The notes under the pieces were generated by a model that was not told where the DNA came from, ran no database searches, and saw nothing but the letters and a program-made list of their open reading frames with translations. Source: an uncultured virus (IMG/VR IMGVR_UViG_3300042197_003121) (taxonomy: Duplodnaviria; Heunggongvirae; Uroviricota; Caudoviricetes). Taken from it: a stretch of DNA of 20,000 nt. Positions 162 to 14,700 of this stretch are shown in pieces; position 1 is the first letter of the stretch; every line of letters starts with the position of its first letter. The position numbers and the translations under genes were made by a program. The stretch is from IMG/VR virus record IMGVR_UViG_3300042197_003121; one strand, 5' to 3'.

Positions 162-1466
162 ATGGCAACCGTTATTGAGCGCGATCATAATCGCTACGAA
201 GTTGTTAAAGTTTTAAATCCTGACGATCAGGTTCTTAACGTATCTCTTGTTTCGTCTCCTCAAGACACCTCTCCAACAACTCTGGACGCTTTTGGTCGGT
301 TACGAATTTCGCAACCCCTTACTCTTTTTGACTCCAGCCATCGCTATCAAGATAATGGCCTGTGGAACACAAATACAGCTAGTGGTGGGACATCAACTTT
401 TAACGCAAATGCTGGACTGGTTGATTTAGCCGTCACCACCACATCCGGGTCTTTAGTTTATCGAGAGACGAGAAAAGTATTTTCTTATCAGCCTGGAAAA
501 TCTTTGCTTGTAATGAATACGTTTGTCATGAACCCTGCTAAAACAGGATTAAGGCAACGTGTTGGATATTTTGGCACAGATAATGGATTTTACATTGAGC
601 TAGCAAATTCAACGCTGTCTCTGGTAGAACGTAGTTCTGTTACCGGATCAGTGACAGAAACCCGTGTTACGCAGGCAGACTGGAATGTAGATAAATTAGA
701 TGGAACTGGTCCATCTGGACTCACTCTGGATATTACAAAAGCTCAAATCCTTTGGGCAGATGTTGAGTGGCTTGGATTAGGTACCGTGCGAATAGGTTTT
801 GTTATTGGTGGTCATTTAGTTACTTGTCACGCTTTTGATCATGCAAACCTGATTACATCAACTTATATCACAACAGCCTCCCTGCCACTTTGTTACGAGA
901 TTGAAAATACTGCGGCCACTGCTAGTTCCAGTACCTTAAAACAAGTTTGTTCTACTGTTATTTCAGAGGGTGGGTATGAATTACGTGGAGCCCAACAGTC
1001 AATTGAAACGCCGATCGCAAGCCCTAGGAACTTAACTAATGCCTCAACTGTGTATCCAATCATTTCAATCAGGCTGAAAACTTCTCCAAATCGCTTAGAT
1101 GCAATTGTAATTTTGACGGCCCTTTCTATTATGGGTATTACTAATAACGCTAATTATCTTTGGAAAGTTGTTGTTTCTGGCACCACTACTGGTGGAACTT
1201 GGGTTAGCGCTGGTGTAGACTCCGCAGTTGAGTATAACTTAACAGGTGTTTCTTTTACGGGAGGTCGCTCCTTGGCATCTGGTTTTGCCAATGGTTCAAA
1301 CCAGGGCAGTACACCTGTAGATATTTTAAAAGAAGCCCTATTTACCACTCAATTAGAGCGAAATACATTTACATCCACACCATACGAATTAACTTTAGTT
1401 GCCTCATCAAATTCAGCCGGAGCGGAAATTTTGGCGTCAATGGATTGGGAGGAAATATCTCGGTGA
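162..1466 (+). CDS. Ser/Thr-rich, beta-rich phage protein, probable virion/tail structural protein
   Basis: 434-aa ORF, very T/S/G/V-rich. The DAFGRLRxSxPxTLFD segment resembles proteins I recall from aquatic phages. Confidence 0.55.
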   Translation: MATVIERDHNRYEVVKVLNPDDQVLNVSLVSSPQDTSPTTLDAFGRLRISQPLTLFDSSHRYQDNGLWNTNTASGGTSTFNANAGLVDLAVTTTSGSLVYRETRKVFSYQPGKSLLVMNTFVMNPAKTGLRQRVGYFGTDNGFYIELANSTLSLVERSSVTGSVTETRVTQADWNVDKLDGTGPSGLTLDITKAQILWADVEWLGLGTVRIGFVIGGHLVTCHAFDHANLITSTYITTASLPLCYEIENTAATASSSTLKQVCSTVISEGGYELRGAQQSIETPIASPRNLTNASTVYPIISIRLKTSPNRLDAIVILTALSIMGITNNANYLWKVVVSGTTTGGTWVSAGVDSAVEYNLTGVSFTGGRSLASGFANGSNQGSTPVDILKEALFTTQLERNTFTSTPYELTLVASSNSAGAEILASMDWEEISR

Positions 1467-2543: not shown

Positions 2544-3095
2544 TTAGGGTTTGTTAACGTTGAAGTGTTCTAATACCGTATCCAGTGATACAGGAGTAAA
2601 GTTATTTCTTTCTACGCATGCATTGAAATACTTTGGATCTACCTGCCCATTTTTAATTACTTGATGACAATGCAGGTGTCCGTGAACATTTCCTCGATAG
2701 TGACCTGACAAACAATCAGGGTGAACTGGGATATGGGTCAAAATCAATCCACCAAGAAAGTTAGATCCTGGTGCAAAGAAAAATGCACCCCTTACATCTT
2801 CAAAATATTGTGTAAAATCTTTGATTGAACAATGCTGATCGTGATTTCCACGGATCAAAATTTTGTGACCATTCAGCCGCTCCAAGATAGGGAGGCTTTT
2901 CCTGGGAATGACCACATCGCCGAGATGGTAAATCTTATCGTGTTTACCTACGACACGATTCCAATTCTCAACCATCGTTTCATCCATTTCTTCACATGAA
3001 GAAAATGGACGAAGCAGTTCACCGTCTGGTCTTACAAAAGAAAGGCTTTTAGCGTGTCCGAAGTGAGTATCTGCTGTGAAGAAGATCGAGGACAT
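2544..3095 (-). CDS. Calcineurin-like metallophosphoesterase
   Basis: Motifs DTH, HLGD, GNHD, THIP and HGHLH in canonical order. Confidence 0.92.
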   Translation of the reverse strand: MSSIFFTADTHFGHAKSLSFVRPDGELLRPFSSCEEMDETMVENWNRVVGKHDKIYHLGDVVIPRKSLPILERLNGHKILIRGNHDQHCSIKDFTQYFEDVRGAFFFAPGSNFLGGLILTHIPVHPDCLSGHYRGNVHGHLHCHQVIKNGQVDPKYFNACVERNNFTPVSLDTVLEHFNVNKP

Positions 3096-3096
3096 C

Positions 3097-3306
3097 TCAA
3101 TCGTAGACGAAGAGCACTTGTTTCTTTACTTTATATTTTTCTTGTTCTTGCTTTTTCAGAACAGAAACCCGTTGTTCTGCTTCTTTGAGTGTGTCAAACG
3201 TTCCGCAGGAATGCCACCAATTAAGTGCAATTAATTCTTCTACTTCATATAAAGCAACCGAAGGATCAATTGCTGAAGGCCTTTGAAGAATTCTGTGTTT
3301 TGACAT
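3097..3306 (-). CDS. Hypothetical protein
   Basis: 69-aa ORF with a GTFDTLKEAE motif common in small phage proteins, adjacent to the phosphoesterase. Confidence 0.7.
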   Translation of the reverse strand: MSKHRILQRPSAIDPSVALYEVEELIALNWWHSCGTFDTLKEAEQRVSVLKKQEQEKYKVKKQVLFVYD

Positions 3307-3964: not shown

Positions 3965-4096
3965 TTCGGATGTTCGAGGTGCTCGTACTATAGGGTTAAT
4001 TACAAACATAACGTTCGGTTTGTCCAACACTTATTATTTTTACAGGATTCCAGCATTTACTGAAACCGTGAAAACCGGTGAAACTGGTTCGGGTTG

Positions 4097-4693
4097 CTAG
4101 GTAGTCAGTCTTTTCCGGCGCTCGTAAACAAATGCATACCCCGGAACCAAATGGGCTGCTGCTGGGGCTGAACCCGCATCGCGCTCTAGTTCAAGGCGGA
4201 TGCGATCTTTGTCAGGGAGATCCTCTTGTTTCACATCGACGATTGTTCCATCATTCAGACGAGTGATGGTAGTTGTCTTTCGCAACCCAAACTCGGAAAC
4301 TTCGTCTTCGCTCCAACCATCAAAACCATCAACCAATCTTGATTTGACCCTCTTGATGGTTGCCTGGTACTTAGTCCCCGTGGGTTTTTTATCAATTAGA
4401 TTTTGTTGATAAGCGTACTTAATTAACGAAACCATTTTCTCCTTATTCTTTTTCCACATATCAAGGTTCTCTTTAATTTCATCAAGCTCTTCTTGTAGCG
4501 CCGCGATGTACTTATCGCAGCGCTTAATCAGCTCAATAATTGAATCAAACTTGCTGGCTTGCCTGGAGGCTAACGCTTGCAGGTGCTGCTCCAGCTCATG
4601 CTTTTCGTCATCGCTGACCTCCGGTAAATCCCGGAGGAAGCTGACGTGTTGAATCGCTTCTGACAGTTGGGCGTAGGTTTGAGAGTCGGACAT
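4097..4693 (-). CDS. Siphovirus Gp157-like coiled-coil protein
   Basis: 198 aa. The N-terminal coiled coil ([28 protein letters not shown]) followed by a beta-rich region matches the Gp157/Gam-like layout. Confidence 0.6.
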
Positions 4694-4724
4694 GGTGTGG
4701 TGGTGTGCGTGTGTGCTTTAAAAA

Positions 4725-4859
4725 TTAACCTTTACCCTGGCCCCGATAAGCCTTGGAGCTCTTGAAAGAACCCCTCTTTCTCAGACCGTGCCCGATGCTG
4801 GTGCGCTTCTTGATCGGTTCGCGGTGGGCTTGGCCAGTAAGTGATTTCTTTGTTGACAT
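4725..4859 (-). CDS. 44-aa highly basic protein ending YRGQGKG
   Basis: MSTKKSLTGQAHREPIKKRTSIGHGLRKRGSFKSSKAYRGQGKG*, directly downstream of a promoter. The YRGQG C-terminus recalls a widespread small phage family. Not in the ORF track. Confidence 0.75.
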   Translation of the reverse strand: MSTKKSLTGQAHREPIKKRTSIGHGLRKRGSFKSSKAYRGQGKG

Positions 4860-4885
4860 GAGTGGTGGGCGTGAAGTGCCCCACC

Positions 4886-4913
4886 ATCCTAGTCATTTTG
4901 TCCACCCTGTCAA
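4886..4913 (-). promoter_or_regulatory. Sigma70-type promoter
   Basis: TTGACA (4913-4908), N16, TAGGAT (4891-4886). Confidence 0.65.
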
Positions 4914-4935
4914 GCACTAAACTTAACAATGTTTT

Positions 4936-4977
4936 TGTAGTGTTCTTTACACAACAAAAATCATTTGTAGTTAGAAT
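4936..4977 (+). promoter_or_regulatory. NtcA-type activated promoter upstream of the nblA-like gene
   Basis: TGTA-GTGTTCTT-TACA at 4936-4951, with 21 nt between TAC and the -10 box TAGAAT (4972-4977). Matches GTAN8TAC-N~22-TAN3T. Confidence 0.7.
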
Positions 4978-5000
4978 GGGAATTATATCTCGCGAACTCT

Positions 5001-5246
5001 ATGTCAAGTTTTGATCTCATAGAGGTTCCCTTCGACCCGAATGACTTCGAGGCCACTTTAGAGGACGAATTTTTAATCGCAAAAATTACGAAAGAATTAG
5101 AAGCGGTTACAGATATCGAACAGCTTAGAACTGGTGCTCTAAAGCTTCTTCATGTCGCAGTTTTACGTCAGGGGATGATTCGAGGCTTATGCCGACGCCT
5201 TGCTGGTCTGGAATCAAACATCATTAAAAAGCGATACGACGAATAA
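5001..5246 (+). CDS. nblA: NblA-like phycobilisome degradation adaptor
   Basis: TLEDEFLIAKITKELEAVTDIEQLRTGALKLLHVAVLRQGMIRGL fits the NblA pattern (LE-x-x-F start, helix-loop-helix, distal R/Q). Isolated plus-strand gene with an NtcA-like promoter. Confidence 0.65.
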   Translation: MSSFDLIEVPFDPNDFEATLEDEFLIAKITKELEAVTDIEQLRTGALKLLHVAVLRQGMIRGLCRRLAGLESNIIKKRYDE

Positions 5247-5268
5247 AAAACCGCCCCTTTCGGAGCGG
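5245..5268 (-). terminator. Intrinsic terminator
   Basis: Minus strand CCGCTCC-GAAA-GGGGCGG-TTTTTT downstream of the DUF5895-like gene. Confidence 0.85.
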
Positions 5269-5298
5269 CTGGCGGTTCACCTTGGGATTCCGGTTACA

Positions 5299-6219
5299 TC
5301 ATAAGGTGATTTCACCTGTCTCTTCGTCGCGAGCACCAAACAGAGCTTTGGTCCCACGACCACCATCAACCGGCGGCAAAGTGAAATCGAGGCCCGGCTT
5401 GACCGCGTGGAACCCGATTTCCTTTGCACACTGGTCAAAGAAGGACTTGGCGTACACCTCAGGCGGGCAGGTTTCGTACACGCTCTCGATGAAGTCAATG
5501 TCGTCCTCAGCTTTCGGGAAGAACTCTTCCACGGTCTCCGCCGTAGGCACCACCCACTTCTCGGGGTAAGCGATCCAGCTCTTAGCTTTCTCACCACCGT
5601 ACAGCTGGGAGCCAAACGTCGGAGTGAAGATCGCAGCGGCTGCCTGCTTGGGGTCAAACCCAGCAGCAGACTTGAGGCCCATGCGATCCGCAAAGGCTGA
5701 TTCGAGCTGCTCGATGAAGGTGCCGTATGCCTCGCAGAACAGTTTGGAGGCCCCACCGTGAACCGAAAGGATCAACGGTTTCTTGTGCTGGGCAACACCG
5801 TCAGCGTTCACGAGGAACATCAGGACCAGACGACGGCGCTTATAAGGGGAAGGCTTTCCAGGGTTTGCAGCCTCGAAGTCGTCGTAGAGGAAGGAGTCCC
5901 TGGGGTAAATCCCGTCGATGCCACCCTTCTCACTATTCTCAATAAAGGTGACGGACTTTGAGAAGCCGCAGTGGATGACAACCATTCGTGGCGTCTTGAA
6001 GAAGATGCCGTCGTTCTTGTCTCCGTTGTTGTACGTGTGGGTGTACTCCTCCGCTTTGGGGAAGTCTTTGACGTTCCCGGACCAGCCGATGCGGGCCAGG
6101 GCGGTGTCTTTCAGGAAGAGGCCGGATTGGCTCTTGTCATTCAGCAGCTGGCAGTTCACCAGCTCGCGCATTTCACCTTGGTATTTTTCGGTGTTCAGGT
6201 ACCGATTAAGTACGGACAT
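5299..6219 (-). CDS. DUF5895-like cyanobacterial/phage protein
   Basis: Likely start MSVLNR at 6219. Blocks CQLLN..GLFL..IGW, GIFFKTPRMVV and RRRLVLMFLV..HKKPLILSVHG recall DUF5895. Visibly GC-rich codon usage. Confidence 0.6.
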   Translation of the reverse strand: MSVLNRYLNTEKYQGEMRELVNCQLLNDKSQSGLFLKDTALARIGWSGNVKDFPKAEEYTHTYNNGDKNDGIFFKTPRMVVIHCGFSKSVTFIENSEKGGIDGIYPRDSFLYDDFEAANPGKPSPYKRRRLVLMFLVNADGVAQHKKPLILSVHGGASKLFCEAYGTFIEQLESAFADRMGLKSAAGFDPKQAAAAIFTPTFGSQLYGGEKAKSWIAYPEKWVVPTAETVEEFFPKAEDDIDFIESVYETCPPEVYAKSFFDQCAKEIGFHAVKPGLDFTLPPVDGGRGTKALFGARDEETGEITL

Positions 6220-6315
6220 TTCAGTCGTTGCAGTAGGTCTGCGTCGGTTGACGCTCCATAAGAATAGCCCCACCCCCAAGAGAATGGGAATGGGGCAACA
6301 GATTAGAATTTCTTA

Positions 6316-7014
6316 TCAGAATGGGACTAGGTCTTCGTCCGGCTCAACGGAAGAAGGCGCCGAATCCTGTTGCATCGGTACCCGTGGTGCAGGTTTTGCC
6401 GCTACTGCTTCTTCTGCTGCCTTGGGCTGGTTCTTACCAAAGACCGAGTACTGTGACGACCGCACCCGCACTTGGTAGGTAGCCCTTTGTTCCCCACTCG
6501 TGGTTTGCCAAGAATTGTAACGCAGGCTACCAGCCAACGTCATCTGCCTTCCAACGAACAGCAGATTGCTCAGCCTCTTGGCATCATCACCCCAGCTTTC
6601 AACCCTGAAGCCAAGGGAATCTTCCCATCGGTGACCAATCAATTGTTGACTTGGCGCCTTACACATCAACGAAAAAGTAAACAGATCTTCCAGTTTCTTT
6701 TCACCGATAAAACCAACACCACCCGCAAGATTTACTTGATTCAGATTAAGGTCCTTCGAGACCACCTGTATCATCTGAGTAGGTACGACATACATCTGGT
6801 AGTCGTTACGATTCGGGTACAACCGACCACCAACCAGAAGACGAACTCCTGGGGTAAACGCATCCATCGAATCACCAGCAGCCTTGTTCGGGACAAGGTT
6901 GAAAGGCACCGATGGATTCTTTCCGCTGCCAGGGATTTCAAGCTTCATAAAGCGAAGACCTGAATCGGTGAAGGTCTCGCTGACGTAGGTCGCAGTGCAG
7001 AGGATGAGATTCAT
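6316..7014 (-). CDS. ssb: Single-stranded DNA-binding protein with two tandem OB-like domains
   Basis: Second domain NQVNLAG...FRVESWGDDAKRLSNLLFVGRQMTLAGSLRYNSWQT...GEQR is SSB-like, with acidic tail DEDLVPF. The first half repeats the G-x-x-L-x-V-x-GRL pattern. Confidence 0.85.
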   Translation of the reverse strand: MNLILCTATYVSETFTDSGLRFMKLEIPGSGKNPSVPFNLVPNKAAGDSMDAFTPGVRLLVGGRLYPNRNDYQMYVVPTQMIQVVSKDLNLNQVNLAGGVGFIGEKKLEDLFTFSLMCKAPSQQLIGHRWEDSLGFRVESWGDDAKRLSNLLFVGRQMTLAGSLRYNSWQTTSGEQRATYQVRVRSSQYSVFGKNQPKAAEEAVAAKPAPRVPMQQDSAPSSVEPDEDLVPF

Positions 7015-7028
7015 GGCAATTGAAGGGT

Positions 7029-7481
7029 TTAGGACGGGTCAATGACTTGGTAGTGGACACCCGCTTCTGCGAGCATATTACTAGCCAAGATGAAGTTCTC
7101 TAACCAACGGTCGGGGATAATGCTACCACCCGATACGTAAACGGCAGTAATTCCTGCATTGATCAGGACTGCAGCGCACCGGCTACATGGCGAAAACGTC
7201 ACGTATGCGGTGCAGTGTTCAGTGCTGACACCATGCAGGGCAGCAGTTGTTACTGCGTTTACCTCCGCATGGACTGTCATTTCATACTTCTGTTCCCTGT
7301 TGGATAAGCGATCAAAGCTATCACTTAGGTTTTTGGGAAAGCCATTGTAACCGGTACTGATTACACGACGATCTTTAACCAAGACACAACCAACAGAAGT
7401 AGAAGGATCTTTACTCCATGTAGCAACTTCAGCTGCTAAACGAAGAAAGCGGATGTGCCATTTTTCATCGTTTATGTTCAT
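7029..7481 (-). CDS. dCMP deaminase
   Basis: SKDPSTSVG, TGYNG, HAE and PCSRC zinc-binding deaminase motifs. Confidence 0.93.
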   Translation of the reverse strand: MNINDEKWHIRFLRLAAEVATWSKDPSTSVGCVLVKDRRVISTGYNGFPKNLSDSFDRLSNREQKYEMTVHAEVNAVTTAALHGVSTEHCTAYVTFSPCSRCAAVLINAGITAVYVSGGSIIPDRWLENFILASNMLAEAGVHYQVIDPS

Positions 7482-7648
7482 CGTGCAAATGCAGCCTCCA
7501 AACGATCTAAAATTGCGTCTTGAATAGCTACTTGTCGAGTCATCAAAACACCAATAAGTTTTTCCAGATCGTTGGACATTTCCTGCAACTCCTCAAGGGA
7601 TATCTCCTCGAGAGACTCTTTGATTTTGCCGAAGCGCTGGGGTTCCAT
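7478..7648 (-). CDS. 56-aa acidic helical protein (MEPQRFGKIKESLEEISLEELQEM...)
   Basis: Its TGA overlaps the deaminase ATG and a promoter-like sequence lies upstream. Not in the ORF track. Confidence 0.7.
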   Translation of the reverse strand: MEPQRFGKIKESLEEISLEELQEMSNDLEKLIGVLMTRQVAIQDAILDRLEAAFAR

Positions 7649-7669
7649 GGGGTGACGTGGCGCAGGACC

Positions 7670-7697
7670 AGTGTACTAGGGTTTTTTCGTTCTGCAA
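7670..7697 (-). promoter_or_regulatory. Putative sigma70-type promoter
   Basis: TTGCAG-N16-TACACT. Confidence 0.45.
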
Positions 7698-7724
7698 CAA
7701 GAAAATATTATTAAGACAGTCGAC

Positions 7725-9569
7725 TCAATGGGTTTCCTTCCAATTGGCGCCAACCCGCGATTCGCCTGTGAAAGGGCACAATAAATTAAAATATTGCCCT
7801 GATTTTTGAATAGCCTCAATCGACAATTTTTGTACAGATTCTATATAAATAGGCTTTGACGCTAGCTGCCATTCATCGTGAAAAAACCCACAAAAAGCAT
7901 AATCAACTCCATGTATTAATCCTTCACCCTTTAAATTATTAAACAAAATACAAGTAGCTTTTTTCATTAATACTGCACCAGTGGATTGCAATAATTGATT
8001 CAAAGCTGAGTGCCTAGATCTAATTTGCAAGTGCCTGCCATCAATTCCTGTTAAATAACCACGCTGTGTAATCCTGGAATCAATTTTATCTTTTAACTTC
8101 TTAATTGCAGGAAGTTTTTTATAAAATGTGTCGATAACTTCTTTGCCTTTTTCCATCATCTGTTGCTCAGACCCCTTGGGGTAAAAGAGCGAACCTACCT
8201 TACGGGATCCAGCACCGTAGCAAACAGCGAAAATCAAAGACTTAGAAAGATTACGCTGTGATTTTTCAATCTCTCCAGTTCCATTCCAAACCCCAAATAG
8301 CTTGGCATTGTAAGAGTGAATATCAAATCCATCTGTGCTGACCAGCTTTGCGTACTCCCCACCATCAAAATGAGCTAGCCACGCCCCCAGTGCTCGTAAC
8401 TCCAAAGCCGCTGCGTCTGTACCGATCAGCCCCCAGCCTTCTGGAGCCGTAAACAAGGCACGACATTCATCACCATAAGGAGCGCCGACCGCTGGCACCT
8501 GACTCATGTTGGGATTTACGTGCGAACAACGACCGCTCACACAGGCATTGGTTTTAACCCCACCATGAATGCGACTATCTCTATATCGTTGACAATGAGT
8601 CAACCACGACTCTTTACCATCCGCAATTTGGCCAAGCCTTTTGTTAAGAAGTTGGTATTCAGCAAGTAACTTAGCTTCTGGATACTTTTCTCCAAGGATT
8701 TCAAGCACATCGTCATCCACCGTAACGTTACCCTTCTCTGTTCGATCAAAGCTGATTTCGGGATAACGAGCCTGTAACCTATCTGCAATTTGTTTTCTTG
8801 ATCCTGCATTGAAAACAATAACGTTTGACTTGAGCTTCCGTCCAGTTTTTTCAGAAATACGCTCTTCTGTGATTGGTGGGAATACTTCTTGGAGCTGTTC
8901 ATCAAGCTCCGCACGTTTAGCTTTGAGCGTATTGACCAGAGCGAAGGCCGCTTTTTCATTGAATGGGAAGCCAAATTCTTCCTGGAGCGACATGACTTTA
9001 GCAAACTCGTGCTCCAGCTCATGACACCTAGGATCTAACTTTTGCTCTATAAGGTACTTATAAAGTTCAAACGTTACGAGTGTATCTCCTTCACAGTATT
9101 TTTGCATTTCAGGAGTCCACTTTTCCCAGACATTGTCTACATCAGGATCTTTTTTGGTTTCCTCTTTAAACTTAATTTTTGATACTCCCAGTCTCTCGCC
9201 CCAGGCCGCAAGAGAATGGCGCCCCTTGTATTTTTTATCGATGTGAGAAAACTTCTGCTCATCGACAGGCTCCAGCTCTGGCCAGAGAACCCGACTCAAA
9301 ATTAAAGTGTCTACCGTGTCGCAATCTGATCTCATAGTGAGACCAGGATAGACTTTGCGTAGTGCCCGGTAGTCAAAATTGATTGTATTGTGACCAACCA
9401 ACTGACTTGCTTTACTGATTAAATCCAGGCCTTTTTCAATTGGGATGTACCCCTCTTGATCAGCGCAGCTGTGAACCTCTCCAGTTTCAACGTCACGCAG
9501 CACCAGACAGTGGATCCGGTCCAGCTCCCAGAGCAGACCATTGGTTTCCACGTCAAGACAGTACCGCAC
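7725..9569 (-). CDS. polA: Phage family A (T7-like) DNA polymerase with 3'-5' exonuclease domain
   Basis: Exo motifs DVET, HNTINFD, HSLAAWG, YCEGD. Pol motifs DAAALELR (A), RNLSKSLIFAVCYG (B), HDE (C). Confidence 0.96.
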   Translation of the reverse strand: MRYCLDVETNGLLWELDRIHCLVLRDVETGEVHSCADQEGYIPIEKGLDLISKASQLVGHNTINFDYRALRKVYPGLTMRSDCDTVDTLILSRVLWPELEPVDEQKFSHIDKKYKGRHSLAAWGERLGVSKIKFKEETKKDPDVDNVWEKWTPEMQKYCEGDTLVTFELYKYLIEQKLDPRCHELEHEFAKVMSLQEEFGFPFNEKAAFALVNTLKAKRAELDEQLQEVFPPITEERISEKTGRKLKSNVIVFNAGSRKQIADRLQARYPEISFDRTEKGNVTVDDDVLEILGEKYPEAKLLAEYQLLNKRLGQIADGKESWLTHCQRYRDSRIHGGVKTNACVSGRCSHVNPNMSQVPAVGAPYGDECRALFTAPEGWGLIGTDAAALELRALGAWLAHFDGGEYAKLVSTDGFDIHSYNAKLFGVWNGTGEIEKSQRNLSKSLIFAVCYGAGSRKVGSLFYPKGSEQQMMEKGKEVIDTFYKKLPAIKKLKDKIDSRITQRGYLTGIDGRHLQIRSRHSALNQLLQSTGAVLMKKATCILFNNLKGEGLIHGVDYAFCGFFHDEWQLASKPIYIESVQKLSIEAIQKSGQYFNLLCPFTGESRVGANWKETH

Positions 9570-11176: not shown

Positions 11177-11809
11177 TCAGGGTGCGGCTCCGCCCTTACC
11201 ACGACTCAAAAGATTTGCCAGCATGGACTTAGAGTCCAGGACCCGAGCTGCTGGGGGTGCGACCTGCTTTTTAAAATCGATCAATAAGATAAATCTGGTT
11301 CGATCGCCCCAATTCCAGGCCTCATGCTCGAGCGTATCATCGAACACAAATGCTTGTCCTGGAGCCCAATGATGAAATTCATCGCCGACCCGAATCCCGC
11401 ACGTATCTGAAGTTAGTGTGCCAGTTGCTCGTCTGTCATACTCTGGACATGGCTTAGGTGTAATCAACCCAAGGTGACACCGCAACACTGAATCGCTGTA
11501 GCCTACGTGAGGTCTGATGTGGGTTTCTGGGGCCAGGGCCGAAAAGCCTGCTGTCACCATGCCTGGGATTGATTCCACAAGGCTGGTGGTCTTTGGACAG
11601 CGTTTGCAGTTTTTCGCCAGCTTTTCCCCGAAAGCGTAAAGCCCATAGACATCCCACCTACCCTCGTAAATTTCTACTTCATGCCAGGCTTGGAAGTAGC
11701 TCTTGTTATTCTCTGATTCGTTATAGAGGAGGTTATTCAGCTCCTCCAGGACATCTTCCCAGGAATCTTCTAAGGATTTAAGGAAAGAAAATTCTGCGTA
11801 TTGATCCAT
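11177..11809 (-). CDS. Aspartyl/asparaginyl beta-hydroxylase family 2OG-Fe(II) oxygenase
   Basis: CPKT, FSALAP-THIRPHVG, LRCHLGL and FVFDDTLEHEAWN..R motifs. Confidence 0.92.
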   Translation of the reverse strand: MDQYAEFSFLKSLEDSWEDVLEELNNLLYNESENNKSYFQAWHEVEIYEGRWDVYGLYAFGEKLAKNCKRCPKTTSLVESIPGMVTAGFSALAPETHIRPHVGYSDSVLRCHLGLITPKPCPEYDRRATGTLTSDTCGIRVGDEFHHWAPGQAFVFDDTLEHEAWNWGDRTRFILLIDFKKQVAPPAARVLDSKSMLANLLSRGKGGAAP

Positions 11810-12009: not shown

Positions 12010-12690
12010 CTAAATTTCCCATTCCACGTCTGCACCACCCAAAGCTTCTGCAATGGTAGGAAGCTGACTGCAGAAAATTTTCTTTATATCTTTTGCGATG
12101 TGCATGTGCTCCATCTGGGTGCCGTGCTTCTCCCTGAGTGCCAGGTAGGTGATCCATGACCTGATGCTGCCGTTCATGTACAGACGAGTTGGTGTAGCTA
12201 GCGGAAGGATTGCCCTGGCGCATTCCTTAGCGACACCGTTGCTAATCATCTCCTTGTACAGATGGCTAACCTCTTCAAACAGTATTCCGATTCGTCGGTA
12301 ATACTGTTGAACGGTATCAATTCCTAAATCGTCAACTGAATTTTGACGATTTTTATAGTCTTGCCTCCGCAGGTGAGGCATTTTTGGCGCCCCCAGTATA
12401 GTGATATCCTGATAGCGTGATGAAAATTCTTGATAGGAGAAGGATCTATGCCTCAGGATCTGAGCAGAAATCCCCCGCGTTGTATTAATTTCCATACAAA
12501 GGTTAGCCATCTCAAAGATTGACCAGTGCCTTTGATTGATGCAATATTTCAACAGCTTAGGAGCCGTCTCCATATTATTTTGGTTGTCCGGATTTGAAAC
12601 CCTGGCACAATAACTAATCACCTCCTCTGCATCAGGAGTGATCCACACAAGTTTGACGCTTTGCATTGGTTCAATGGCTTTGAGTTTCAT
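12010..12690 (-). CDS. thyX: FAD-dependent thymidylate synthase
   Basis: ARVS, HWSIFE, QILRHRSFSYQEFSSRY and ECARAILP motifs. Start at 12690 is supported by TAATG coupling. Confidence 0.96.
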   Translation of the reverse strand: MKLKAIEPMQSVKLVWITPDAEEVISYCARVSNPDNQNNMETAPKLLKYCINQRHWSIFEMANLCMEINTTRGISAQILRHRSFSYQEFSSRYQDITILGAPKMPHLRRQDYKNRQNSVDDLGIDTVQQYYRRIGILFEEVSHLYKEMISNGVAKECARAILPLATPTRLYMNGSIRSWITYLALREKHGTQMEHMHIAKDIKKIFCSQLPTIAEALGGADVEWEI

Positions 12691-13037
12691 TAGATGTGGC
12701 TCCATCGTTTTCGTTTTACAATCCGATAAACAGTGCTGTGATGGATACCGTAGCGTTCGGCAATTTCTTTGTAAGTTGTTTTTGTTTCCGCTAGTAAGCG
12801 GATGTCCCTTACATTTTGCTCTGTCAAGACAGAAGTGCCAGATTGTTCTCCTCTTCTAATACAATTAGAATGTTGAGGTACGCCGGGAATTGATCCGCGT
12901 TTTTTGATTGCGTAGGACTCAATTGTTTTAAAATTAGTCCCACACTTTAAGCACTTACAGTAACGCCAGGTCTCATTACCGTGGTGCTTGGTCACGGTCA
13001 CCTTGGTGTTTTTGGAATTACACTTCCGGCAATTCAT
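12690..13037 (-). CDS. NrdR-like zinc ribbon fused to a C-terminal HTH
   Basis: MNCRKC..TKV..T...RYCKCLKCGTNFKTIE, followed by EIAERYGIHHSTVYRIV. Confidence 0.75.
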   Translation of the reverse strand: MNCRKCNSKNTKVTVTKHHGNETWRYCKCLKCGTNFKTIESYAIKKRGSIPGVPQHSNCIRRGEQSGTSVLTEQNVRDIRLLAETKTTYKEIAERYGIHHSTVYRIVKRKRWSHI

Positions 13038-13960: not shown

Positions 13961-14311
13961 TCAACCATACTGTTTAATCCACCTCCCTACTGTTGTTTTT
14001 CCAATGCCAAGGAGTTGCGCAATTTGCAAGTGAGTTTTACCTTGCGTACGTAGCTCAAGGCACCAACGAAGTTTCCGTTCACACTCTTCCTCTTCCTTGG
14101 TATGAATAACTGTTGTTGTGGAAGAAGAAGAGAAGAACGGATGAACATTCTCAAGCTGATTGGAAGCCAGGCCGAGAAGGTGAACGTTACGTGCTCCTGG
14201 ATGTTCTACTTTTGCTAAATCGCAGGCTTCGAGACCGTTTTTAGCAGTGATGGTAGTCTCAACAGGCTTTCCATCTCCGAACGCAATTCGGACTTTGTAG
14301 GTCTTGCGCAT
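13961..14311 (-). CDS. Protein with C-terminal HTH
   Basis: GKTHLQIAQLLGIGKTTVGRWIK. Likely start MRKTY at 14311. Confidence 0.8.
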   Translation of the reverse strand: MRKTYKVRIAFGDGKPVETTITAKNGLEACDLAKVEHPGARNVHLLGLASNQLENVHPFFSSSSTTTVIHTKEEEECERKLRWCLELRTQGKTHLQIAQLLGIGKTTVGRWIKQYG

Positions 14312-14313
14312 GC

Positions 14314-14700
14314 TCAAACGTTTTTCCAAGAGTGACGGTTAACAACCCCGTACACCGTGGTCAAATGAATACCGAACTCCTTCGCCAGTTGGCAATATGC
14401 CGCGTGAGTGCTGTTGAACTGAGTTAGAAATTCAGGACTTGCTGCTTTTGCACGAAGTTCACGGACCCGATCAACGTTGAGTTTGGCCATAGGGCGCATA
14501 CGACGGCCCCTCTTCTCCTTCGGAGCCTTGACCGTAGTGGCCTTTACACTGGGAAGAACACTGTTGATGGGTGCGGTGATCATGATCTGATCGCTGTTTC
14601 GCGTGGCAGTCAGGACGAGGTAACCGTCGCGGACATCGATGTTGGGCGCGTCTTCTGCTGTGATTTTCAGGGTCTGGACCGCTTGGAAATTGAAAGGCAT
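14314..14700 (-). CDS. Protein with C-terminal HTH
   Basis: AKLNVDRVRELR...QLAKEFGIHLTTVYGVVNRHSWKNV. Likely start MPFNF at 14700. Confidence 0.75.
   Translation of the reverse strand: MPFNFQAVQTLKITAEDAPNIDVRDGYLVLTATRNSDQIMITAPINSVLPSVKATTVKAPKEKRGRRMRPMAKLNVDRVRELRAKAASPEFLTQFNSTHAAYCQLAKEFGIHLTTVYGVVNRHSWKNV

Follow-up and report, generated by a model that had tools for sequence, protein, structure and literature searches.

NblA is a small adaptor of helix-loop-helix shape that delivers proteins of the phycobilisome to the Clp protease, and NtcA is the cyanobacterial nitrogen regulator that activates class II promoters once 2-oxoglutarate accumulates. At the nblA promoter of Synechococcus elongatus PCC 7942, NtcA sites were reportedly found by Luque et al. 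in 2001. In Nostoc, nblA is NtcA-dependent but, according to passages of the published account, has no consensus NtcA site (PMC13283749). The most strongly NtcA-induced promoters of Synechocystis carry the palindrome GTA-N8-TAC near position -41.5, with GTA kept more strictly than TAC and an N8 that leans toward A/T, and the class II promoter is outlined in sections of the same paper as a -10 element of the form TAN3T without a -35 element (PMC5714215).

Small NblA homologues that are expected to bring about phycobilisome breakdown are likewise borne by phages, namely the T7-like S-TIP37, the Microcystis phage Ma-LMM01 and the T4-like S-SCSM1; the nblA annotation is present in the latter two. 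The nblA gene of Ma-LMM01 is a known phage case (PMC4103541), and the viral NblA of S-TIP37 was studied by Nadel et al. (2025), where parts of the article state that it shortens the infection cycle and lowers light harvesting by ocean cyanobacteria (PMC12695635). Predicted NtcA sites are known from the marine T4-like cyanophages, with 1-16 sites per myovirus genome located before diverse genes (Sullivan et al. 2010, PMC3037559). Portions of that paper also state that nblA was not seen in marine cyanophages, and raise the idea that the nitrogen drain caused by phage replication acts as the trigger in T4-like cyanophages (PMC3037559).

The locus described here appears to combine these two themes, a phage NblA and a phage promoter of the NtcA type, in an NblA family that carries no annotation; the sequence comparisons given below support this as the new element. 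A literature search covering full texts found no description of NtcA control of a phage nblA. Our main reading, to which we assign a probability of roughly 0.6, is that a divergent phage NblA is transcribed from a class II NtcA-type promoter. The sequence that was analysed, called the window, is the whole 20,000-nt stretch of IMG/VR record IMGVR_UViG_3300042197_003121, an uncultured virus of the Caudoviricetes. The locus contains the following features.

4097-4693 and 4725-4859, minus strand: neighbouring genes on one side
4886-4913, minus strand: predicted divergent promoter of sigma-70 type serving the minus-strand genes, TTGACA 4913-4908 and TAGGAT 4891-4886 (consensus scan)
4922-4926, plus strand: CTTAA pentamer, 15 nt upstream of GTA (column conservation in relatives)
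4936-4951, plus strand: NtcA-type box TGTA-N8-TACA, with core GTA-N8-TAC at 4937-4950 (direct reading)
4972-4977, plus strand: -10 hexamer TAGAAT (direct reading and promoter scan)
4983-4985, plus strand: predicted transcription start, from the position of the -10 hexamer
5001-5246, plus strand: NblA-like ORF of 81 aa, ATG at 5001 (ORF list)
5249-5270, minus strand: GC-rich hairpin between the convergent nblA-like and DUF5895 genes (terminator scan)
5299-6279, 6316-7014, 7029-7481 and 7725-9569, minus strand: neighbouring genes on the other side

The box consists of TGTA (4936-4939), the N8 segment GTGTTCTT (4940-4947) and TACA (4948-4951); the core palindrome at 4937-4950 reads GTAGTGTTCTTTAC, and its flanks are T-rich on the left and A-rich on the right. 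Twenty-one nucleotides (4951-4971) separate TAC from TAGAAT, and another 23 (4978-5000) separate TAGAAT from the ATG. An earlier note on this DNA had described the same box, spacing, -10 hexamer and start codon, and each of its coordinates was reproduced by direct reading. If transcription starts at 4985, the centre of the box (4943.5) would lie at -41.5. The claim that a -35 element is absent proved nearly right: the promoter scan found no canonical -35 for the nblA-like gene, but a weak hexamer, TACACA, matches the consensus at 4 of 6 positions with an 18-nt spacing and coincides with the right half of the box; it was the only -35-like hexamer on the plus strand. The divergent promoter, with 10 of 12 consensus matches and a 16-nt spacer between TTGACA and TAGGAT, has the full TTGACA hexamer that the promoter of the nblA-like gene lacks. 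The box lies in the 141-bp divergent intergenic region. On the sequence level, GTA-N8-TAC, 21 nt to TAGAAT and no canonical -35 agree with the class II NtcA-type architecture that the earlier note had assigned to this promoter. That note had also called the gene a lone plus-strand unit in a minus-strand region, which is borne out by the ORF list, where it is the sole plus-strand ORF between the minus-strand gene blocks. The hairpin behind the gene has 9 pairs, 6 of them G-C, and a T-run on the minus strand only, with the tail TTTTATTCGT.

Compared with class II NtcA promoters, the window promoter shares the palindrome, the distance of 21-22 nt to a -10 of the form TAN3T and the lack of a canonical -35. 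It differs in that it lies in a phage genome before a phage gene, in that it is a candidate site recognized from sequence only, and in that the box coexists with a near-consensus -35 in one phage sub-clade. The locus also differs from the known phage nblA genes. The window family is a different sequence family, 81 aa long with extensions and recorded as hypothetical protein, and its gene, unlike the known ones, is a unit of its own on the opposite strand, running from promoter to hairpin. Neighbouring genes occupy the 150 nt upstream of nblA in S-TIP37 and Ma-LMM01, while the nblA of S-SCSM1 has promoters of the TTGACA/TATAAT type; neither GTA-N8-TAC nor GT-N10-AC was found in the 150 nt upstream of any of these three genes. 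The idea is the same as in the marine T4-like cyanophages, that is, host NtcA sites before phage genes to exploit the nitrogen-stress response, but the phage lineage is another one, and no good site besides that of nblA was found. Host nblA expression is tied to nitrogen status via NtcA, as is predicted here. The phage promoter, with a single consensus box at the activating position, would represent a more direct wiring than that reported for Nostoc.

The box is not significant when the window is considered alone. GTA-N8-TAC occurs at 4 sites against 1.72 expected (at least 4 in 15 of 200 shuffles), and TGTA-N8-TACA at 1 site against 0.15 expected (at least 1 in 30 of 200 shuffles). The combination of a box with TAnnnT at 20-23 nt is found once against 0.185 expected, and at least once in 163 of 1000 Markov simulations. 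The strict form, TGTA..TACA followed by TA[GT]A[AC]T, appeared in 0 of 1000 simulations, for a pattern that was defined after the site had been seen. Since the box is within chance in the window, its weight rests on its conservation in relatives. The other three GTA-N8-TAC sites were rejected. The one at 14534-14547, which falls within coding sequence on the minus strand and has no suitably spaced -10, is attributed to chance, and those at 2578 and 6517 have no suitably spaced -10 either.

The window is phage DNA, as judged from its predicted DNA polymerase, SSB, dCMP deaminase and ThyX genes. The genes identified in it include the following.

162-1466, plus strand: virion structural protein, phrog_1645
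5299-6279, minus strand: DUF5895 protein, adjoining the nblA-like gene
6316-7014, minus strand: SSB-like protein
7029-7481, minus strand: dCMP deaminase
7725-9569, minus strand: family A DNA polymerase
11177-11809, minus strand: Asp/Asn beta-hydroxylase family protein of the 2OG-Fe(II) type (PF05118, E 1.6e-44)
12010-12705, minus strand: ThyX
12690-13037, minus strand: small protein with C-terminal HTH_23
13961-14329, minus strand: small protein with C-terminal HTH_23

The gene content is best explained by a freshwater cyanophage that is a distant relative of Synechococcus phage S-EIVl, to judge from sequence similarity and gene order. The DNA polymerase is 40% identical to that of S-EIVl, and S-EIVl has a syntenic lone plus-strand gene. 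In this phage, the only cultured relative, the intergenic region is 40 nt long and holds TAGAAT but no box. A search for near-identical DNA with positions 4000-9000 found no match in cultured phages, and the DUF5895 protein has no homologue there. No tRNA genes were found within the window.

The promoter was compared over 35 loci from viral contigs, 55 loci from metagenome contigs and the syntenic S-EIVl gene. After one weak partial match (L091) had been dropped and identical upstream 100-mers had been merged, 62 distinct promoter regions remained, the window included. They fall into five groups.

13 of 62: perfect GTA-N8-TAC, 21 nt from the -10, without a -35 (window included)
15 of 62: perfect box at spacing 22 to the -10, immediately next to a TTGAC[AG] -35 at 16 nt
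8 of 62: one mismatch, mostly AAC for TAC, at spacing 21, without a -35
8 of 62: -35 present, no box
18 of 62: neither box nor -35

A perfect box is thus present in 28 of the 62 upstream regions and a box with at most one mismatch in 36, locus counts which, the sequences being related, overstate the number of independent events. The 28 perfect boxes are confined to spacings of 21 or 22 nt from the -10, and the rest of the 5000 positions examined hold none; five control palindromes of like composition occurred 0-2 times. Conservation of the box upstream of homologues was a check that the earlier note had set beforehand, and the claim came through it with this fixed spacing. Where a box (at most one mismatch) is present without a -35, in 21 promoters, TTTGTA and TAC hardly change, in contrast to the freely varying N8 and 21-nt spacer, and CTTAA is among the best conserved columns. 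Across the related promoters GTA is more strictly kept than TAC, and 3 to 8 of the 8 positions of N8 are A or T. The related loci have TAGAAT, TAGACT or a similar hexamer 25-29 nt ahead of the start codon. The proteins encoded at box-bearing loci range from 95% down to 51% identity to the window protein, so the box keeps its spacing across a diverged phage clade. In the protein tree, which was built from a short alignment and has many unresolved forks, the box is scattered over the main clade of 52 rows and is absent from S-EIVl and two basal groups.

A further conserved element is an ATTATG(C) stretch 4-5 nt past the -10, at the predicted transcript start, which reads ATTATA in the window (4982-4987). 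It is conserved in relatives (L001-L090), both with and without the box.

The arrangement of the divergent promoter provides a further comparison. The gap between the box and the divergent TTGACA is 22-25 nt in box-only promoters and 4-5 nt in promoters with a box and a -35, or the hexamer is missing; correspondingly, a TGTCAA found again in relatives precedes the box by 4 to 25 nt. The fixed spacing to the nblA -10, set against this variable gap, indicates that the box belongs to the plus-strand promoter. In the loci L010, L013, L024, L065 and 11 others the box has the form GTAAC-N4-GTTAC and lies between two inverted TTGACA hexamers, GTGTCAAG ... CTTGACAC, giving a compact back-to-back pair of divergent promoters about 35-80 nt upstream of the ATG. 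In sister loci the -35 is kept and the box is lost.

These variants bear on the strongest alternative, which we consider unlikely. The gene could be transcribed from an ordinary host sigma-70 (early) promoter, independent of NtcA, and the palindrome could serve a phage regulator, another host factor or a shared divergent operator. The weak TACACA at 18 nt would then act as the -35, and the position of the palindrome between two inverted TTGACA hexamers in 15 loci, the retention of the -35 with loss of the box in eight relatives and the presence in the window of the two small HTH proteins (12690-13037 and 13961-14329) all fit such a promoter. Related records also have no genome-wide excess of NtcA-type sites: with the strict consensus, the box with a -10 was found 3, 0, 4 and 1 times in four related phage records (L039 left out), against 1, 1, 3 and 1 for the reversed control pattern. 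However, the conserved triplets are exactly those of the NtcA signature, GTA and TAC with 8 nt between them, and a -35 cannot account for a GTA that precedes TAC by 11 nt. No other -35 candidate was found in the 21 loci that have a box but no -35. The spacing to the nblA -10 stays at 21 or 22 nt, against a distance of 4 to 25 nt to the divergent -35, and a CRP-type HTH over the cut-off was found in none of the four related phage records. The two HTH_23 proteins of the window could possibly be phage transcription regulators, judged by their domains. One has an NrdR-like zinc ribbon and the other a weak match to sigma-70 region 4.

The main reading, transcription of a divergent nblA from a class II NtcA-type promoter, has to accommodate the same variants. 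The 26 of 62 promoters without a box, S-EIVl among them, together with the 15 of 28 boxes beside a good -35, imply that NtcA control is neither universal nor necessarily strict. In the 15 promoters that combine box and good -35, NtcA may only modulate expression, and the -35 abutting the box could render them NtcA-independent.

The second component of the main reading is the identity of the protein. The window protein has 99 homologues, nearly all 81 aa long and strongly conserved, and all source names seen for family members are hypothetical protein. Among the 99 homologues there is no precomputed Pfam domain, and the window protein alone matched 0 Pfam families even at E<=10 and had no match in PHROGs or in the PDB. 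It is below the Pfam gathering cut-off for NblA (PF04485, 25 bits). Within the family, 24 of 47 aligned members have sub-threshold matches to PF04485 (best E 1e-4), and other Pfam families are matched by at most 5 of the 47. A profile of the family gave two NblA structures as its two best matches in the PDB (2q8v, E 0.015; 2qdo, E 0.086) and 54 matches at E<=1e-3 among 1.84 billion representative proteins. When 53 of these 54 were scanned against Pfam, 7 matched NblA at E<=0.01 and 3 of them were over the 25-bit cut-off: P0108 with 25.8, P0132 with 30.7 and P0140 with 34.0 bits, for which the family profile gave library-wide E values of 3.4e-18, 4.8e-6 and 1.7e-4, respectively. In a BLASTP comparison the window protein and P0132 are 37% identical over 57 aa without gaps.

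Alignment of the family profile with a profile of the NblA-scoring proteins (hhalign) gave a probability of 98.8% over 59 columns. The family profile widened with remote matches ranked all four solved NblA structures 1st, 2nd, 3rd and 5th in the PDB (2q8v, 3.6e-8; 2qdo, 7e-7; 1ojh, 0.006; 3cs5, 0.09). The NblA-scoring proteins and part of the widened set were found via the family profile, so the last two results are supportive but not fully independent. The NblA core corresponds to about residues 17-68, and the family-invariant residues are inside the aligned core. Outside it, two stretches are conserved in the family but absent in canonical NblA, an N-terminal segment and a C-terminal tail with near-invariant E71 and Y79. 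Searches that started from single sequences reached less far. With tblastn only weak matches were found in phages (S-EIVl hypothetical protein, E 0.1; S-SCSM1 nblA, E 10), P0132 had no tblastn match in phages, and a homologue search seeded with P0140 returned only P0140.

On these profile comparisons the core of the ORF at 5001-5246 qualifies as homologous to bona fide NblA over about 50 residues. The label nblA-like given in the earlier note is upheld by the family profile, the relatives that pass the PF04485 cut-off and the NblA structures. As the window protein itself is under the Pfam threshold, it is classified as a divergent homologue of the NblA superfamily and not as a member of PF04485. 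The widened profile placed NblA structures at the top; structure searches recovered no NblA. The AlphaFold2 model is a helix-loop-helix with helices at 20-34 and 39-78 (mean pLDDT 74, pTM 0.43), for which Foldseek found no match in the PDB at E<=0.001 and VIA-align gave generic long-helix matches only (Z<=6.1). A model of two helices is too generic a shape for such searches.

The protein could also be a helical hairpin that descends from NblA but has ceased to act on phycobilisomes, serving for instance as a Clp adaptor or inhibitor that has other targets. In that case the connection with antenna degradation would be mistaken, even with real control by NtcA. The missing Pfam match of the window protein, the conserved extra segments at both termini and the uninformative fold searches are in line with such a role. 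Sections of the S-TIP37 study moreover state that its viral NblA directs the cleavage of many non-antenna proteins (PMC12695635). The gapless alignment with the NblA core over 57-59 columns, which holds the family-invariant residues, and the preservation of the 81-aa length and strong conservation in 99 homologues make this quite unlikely.

It is very unlikely, finally, that a genuine NtcA site represses or tunes the divergent minus-strand operon or is the decaying relic of a captured host nblA promoter: the palindromic site does lie within the 141-bp divergent intergenic region and the box has decayed in several lineages, but relative to the start predicted for the minus strand its centre would be at about -64 in the window and at about -46 in loci that also have a -35, so that its position is not conserved for a minus-strand promoter, and a relic would not preserve GTA and TAC through a divergence that has changed the N8, the spacer and, to as little as 51% identity, the protein.

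Action of NtcA requires a cyanobacterial host, which we infer from the NblA homology, the synteny with S-EIVl, the matches of the virion protein and the occurrence in lakes, the family being found in freshwater and lake metagenomes. Among 176 phage records that match the virion protein at 162-1466, 165 are named Synechococcus, Cyanophage or Prochlorococcus. This protein is 62-68% identical to those of many T4-like Synechococcus phages, and its top match is Puniceispirillum phage HMO-2011; by these matches the gene seems to be common to very different phage types. Two observations count against a cyanobacterial host. No psbA was found in the four related phage records, and in a search of species genomes one relative (L103) turned up in a MAG labelled Bacteroidetes. 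The label is probably due to mis-binning. The L103 contig is syntenic and phage-like, with homologues of o4097, the DUF5895 protein (62% identical), SSB and the dCMP deaminase. Its NblA-like ORF (2989-3207) has an in-frame TAG at codon 13 and is preceded by GTA-N8-AAC at spacing 21.

In view of the above, a mechanism can be considered in which host RNA polymerase transcribes the nblA-like gene as a self-contained plus-strand unit. The -35-less promoter would need an activator. When nitrogen assimilation lags, NtcA loaded with 2-oxoglutarate would occupy the box near -41.5 and bring in the polymerase, after which the NblA-like protein would direct phycobilisome proteolysis. Antenna breakdown would in this way be switched on, or boosted, by the nitrogen-shortage signal of the infected cell, and the trigger could be either an environmental nitrogen shortage or the nitrogen drain by phage replication. 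In this scheme the binding of NtcA, the start site, the dependence on nitrogen and the bleaching activity are predictions, as is the cyanobacterial host. The earlier note had gone further, suggesting that the gene may be on only in nitrogen-limited hosts and that amino acids may be recycled.

A wider and more tentative interpretation, possible but short of even odds in our estimate, is that a widespread clade of freshwater cyanophages directly reads the host 2-oxoglutarate/NtcA signal to time antenna demolition, with the gene moving repeatedly among three promoter designs. These designs would be the NtcA box only, the box with a -35, and the -35 only. Through them a viral auxiliary gene would be naturally tuned from conditional to constitutive expression, perhaps in line with the nitrogen regime of each lake, and the wiring of nblA to NtcA would be more direct than that found for the Nostoc host gene.

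If the main reading is confirmed, the destruction of the antenna by viruses, and with it their effect on primary production, would be tied to nitrogen availability. The locus offers a concrete case of a phage auxiliary gene that is possibly gated by a host metabolic sensor, and the natural promoter variants (box only, box with -35, -35 only, and none) can serve as ready-made controls. It also brings to light an unannotated NblA family from lake metagenomes, which Pfam-based surveys will miss.

In two lake metatranscriptome runs (X23 and X24) no contig covered the nblA-like gene; the contigs, which are 90-99% alike, cover 5781-6241 in the DUF5895 gene only. This material consists of contigs at low shares and is therefore uninformative on expression of the nblA-like gene, and the contigs over 5781-6241 do not prove transcription of the DUF5895 gene. 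A last observation concerns the metabolite to which the candidate promoter would respond. The phage with a candidate 2-oxoglutarate-sensing promoter also appears to encode, on the minus strand at 11177-11809, a 2-oxoglutarate/Fe(II) oxygenase that consumes 2-oxoglutarate.
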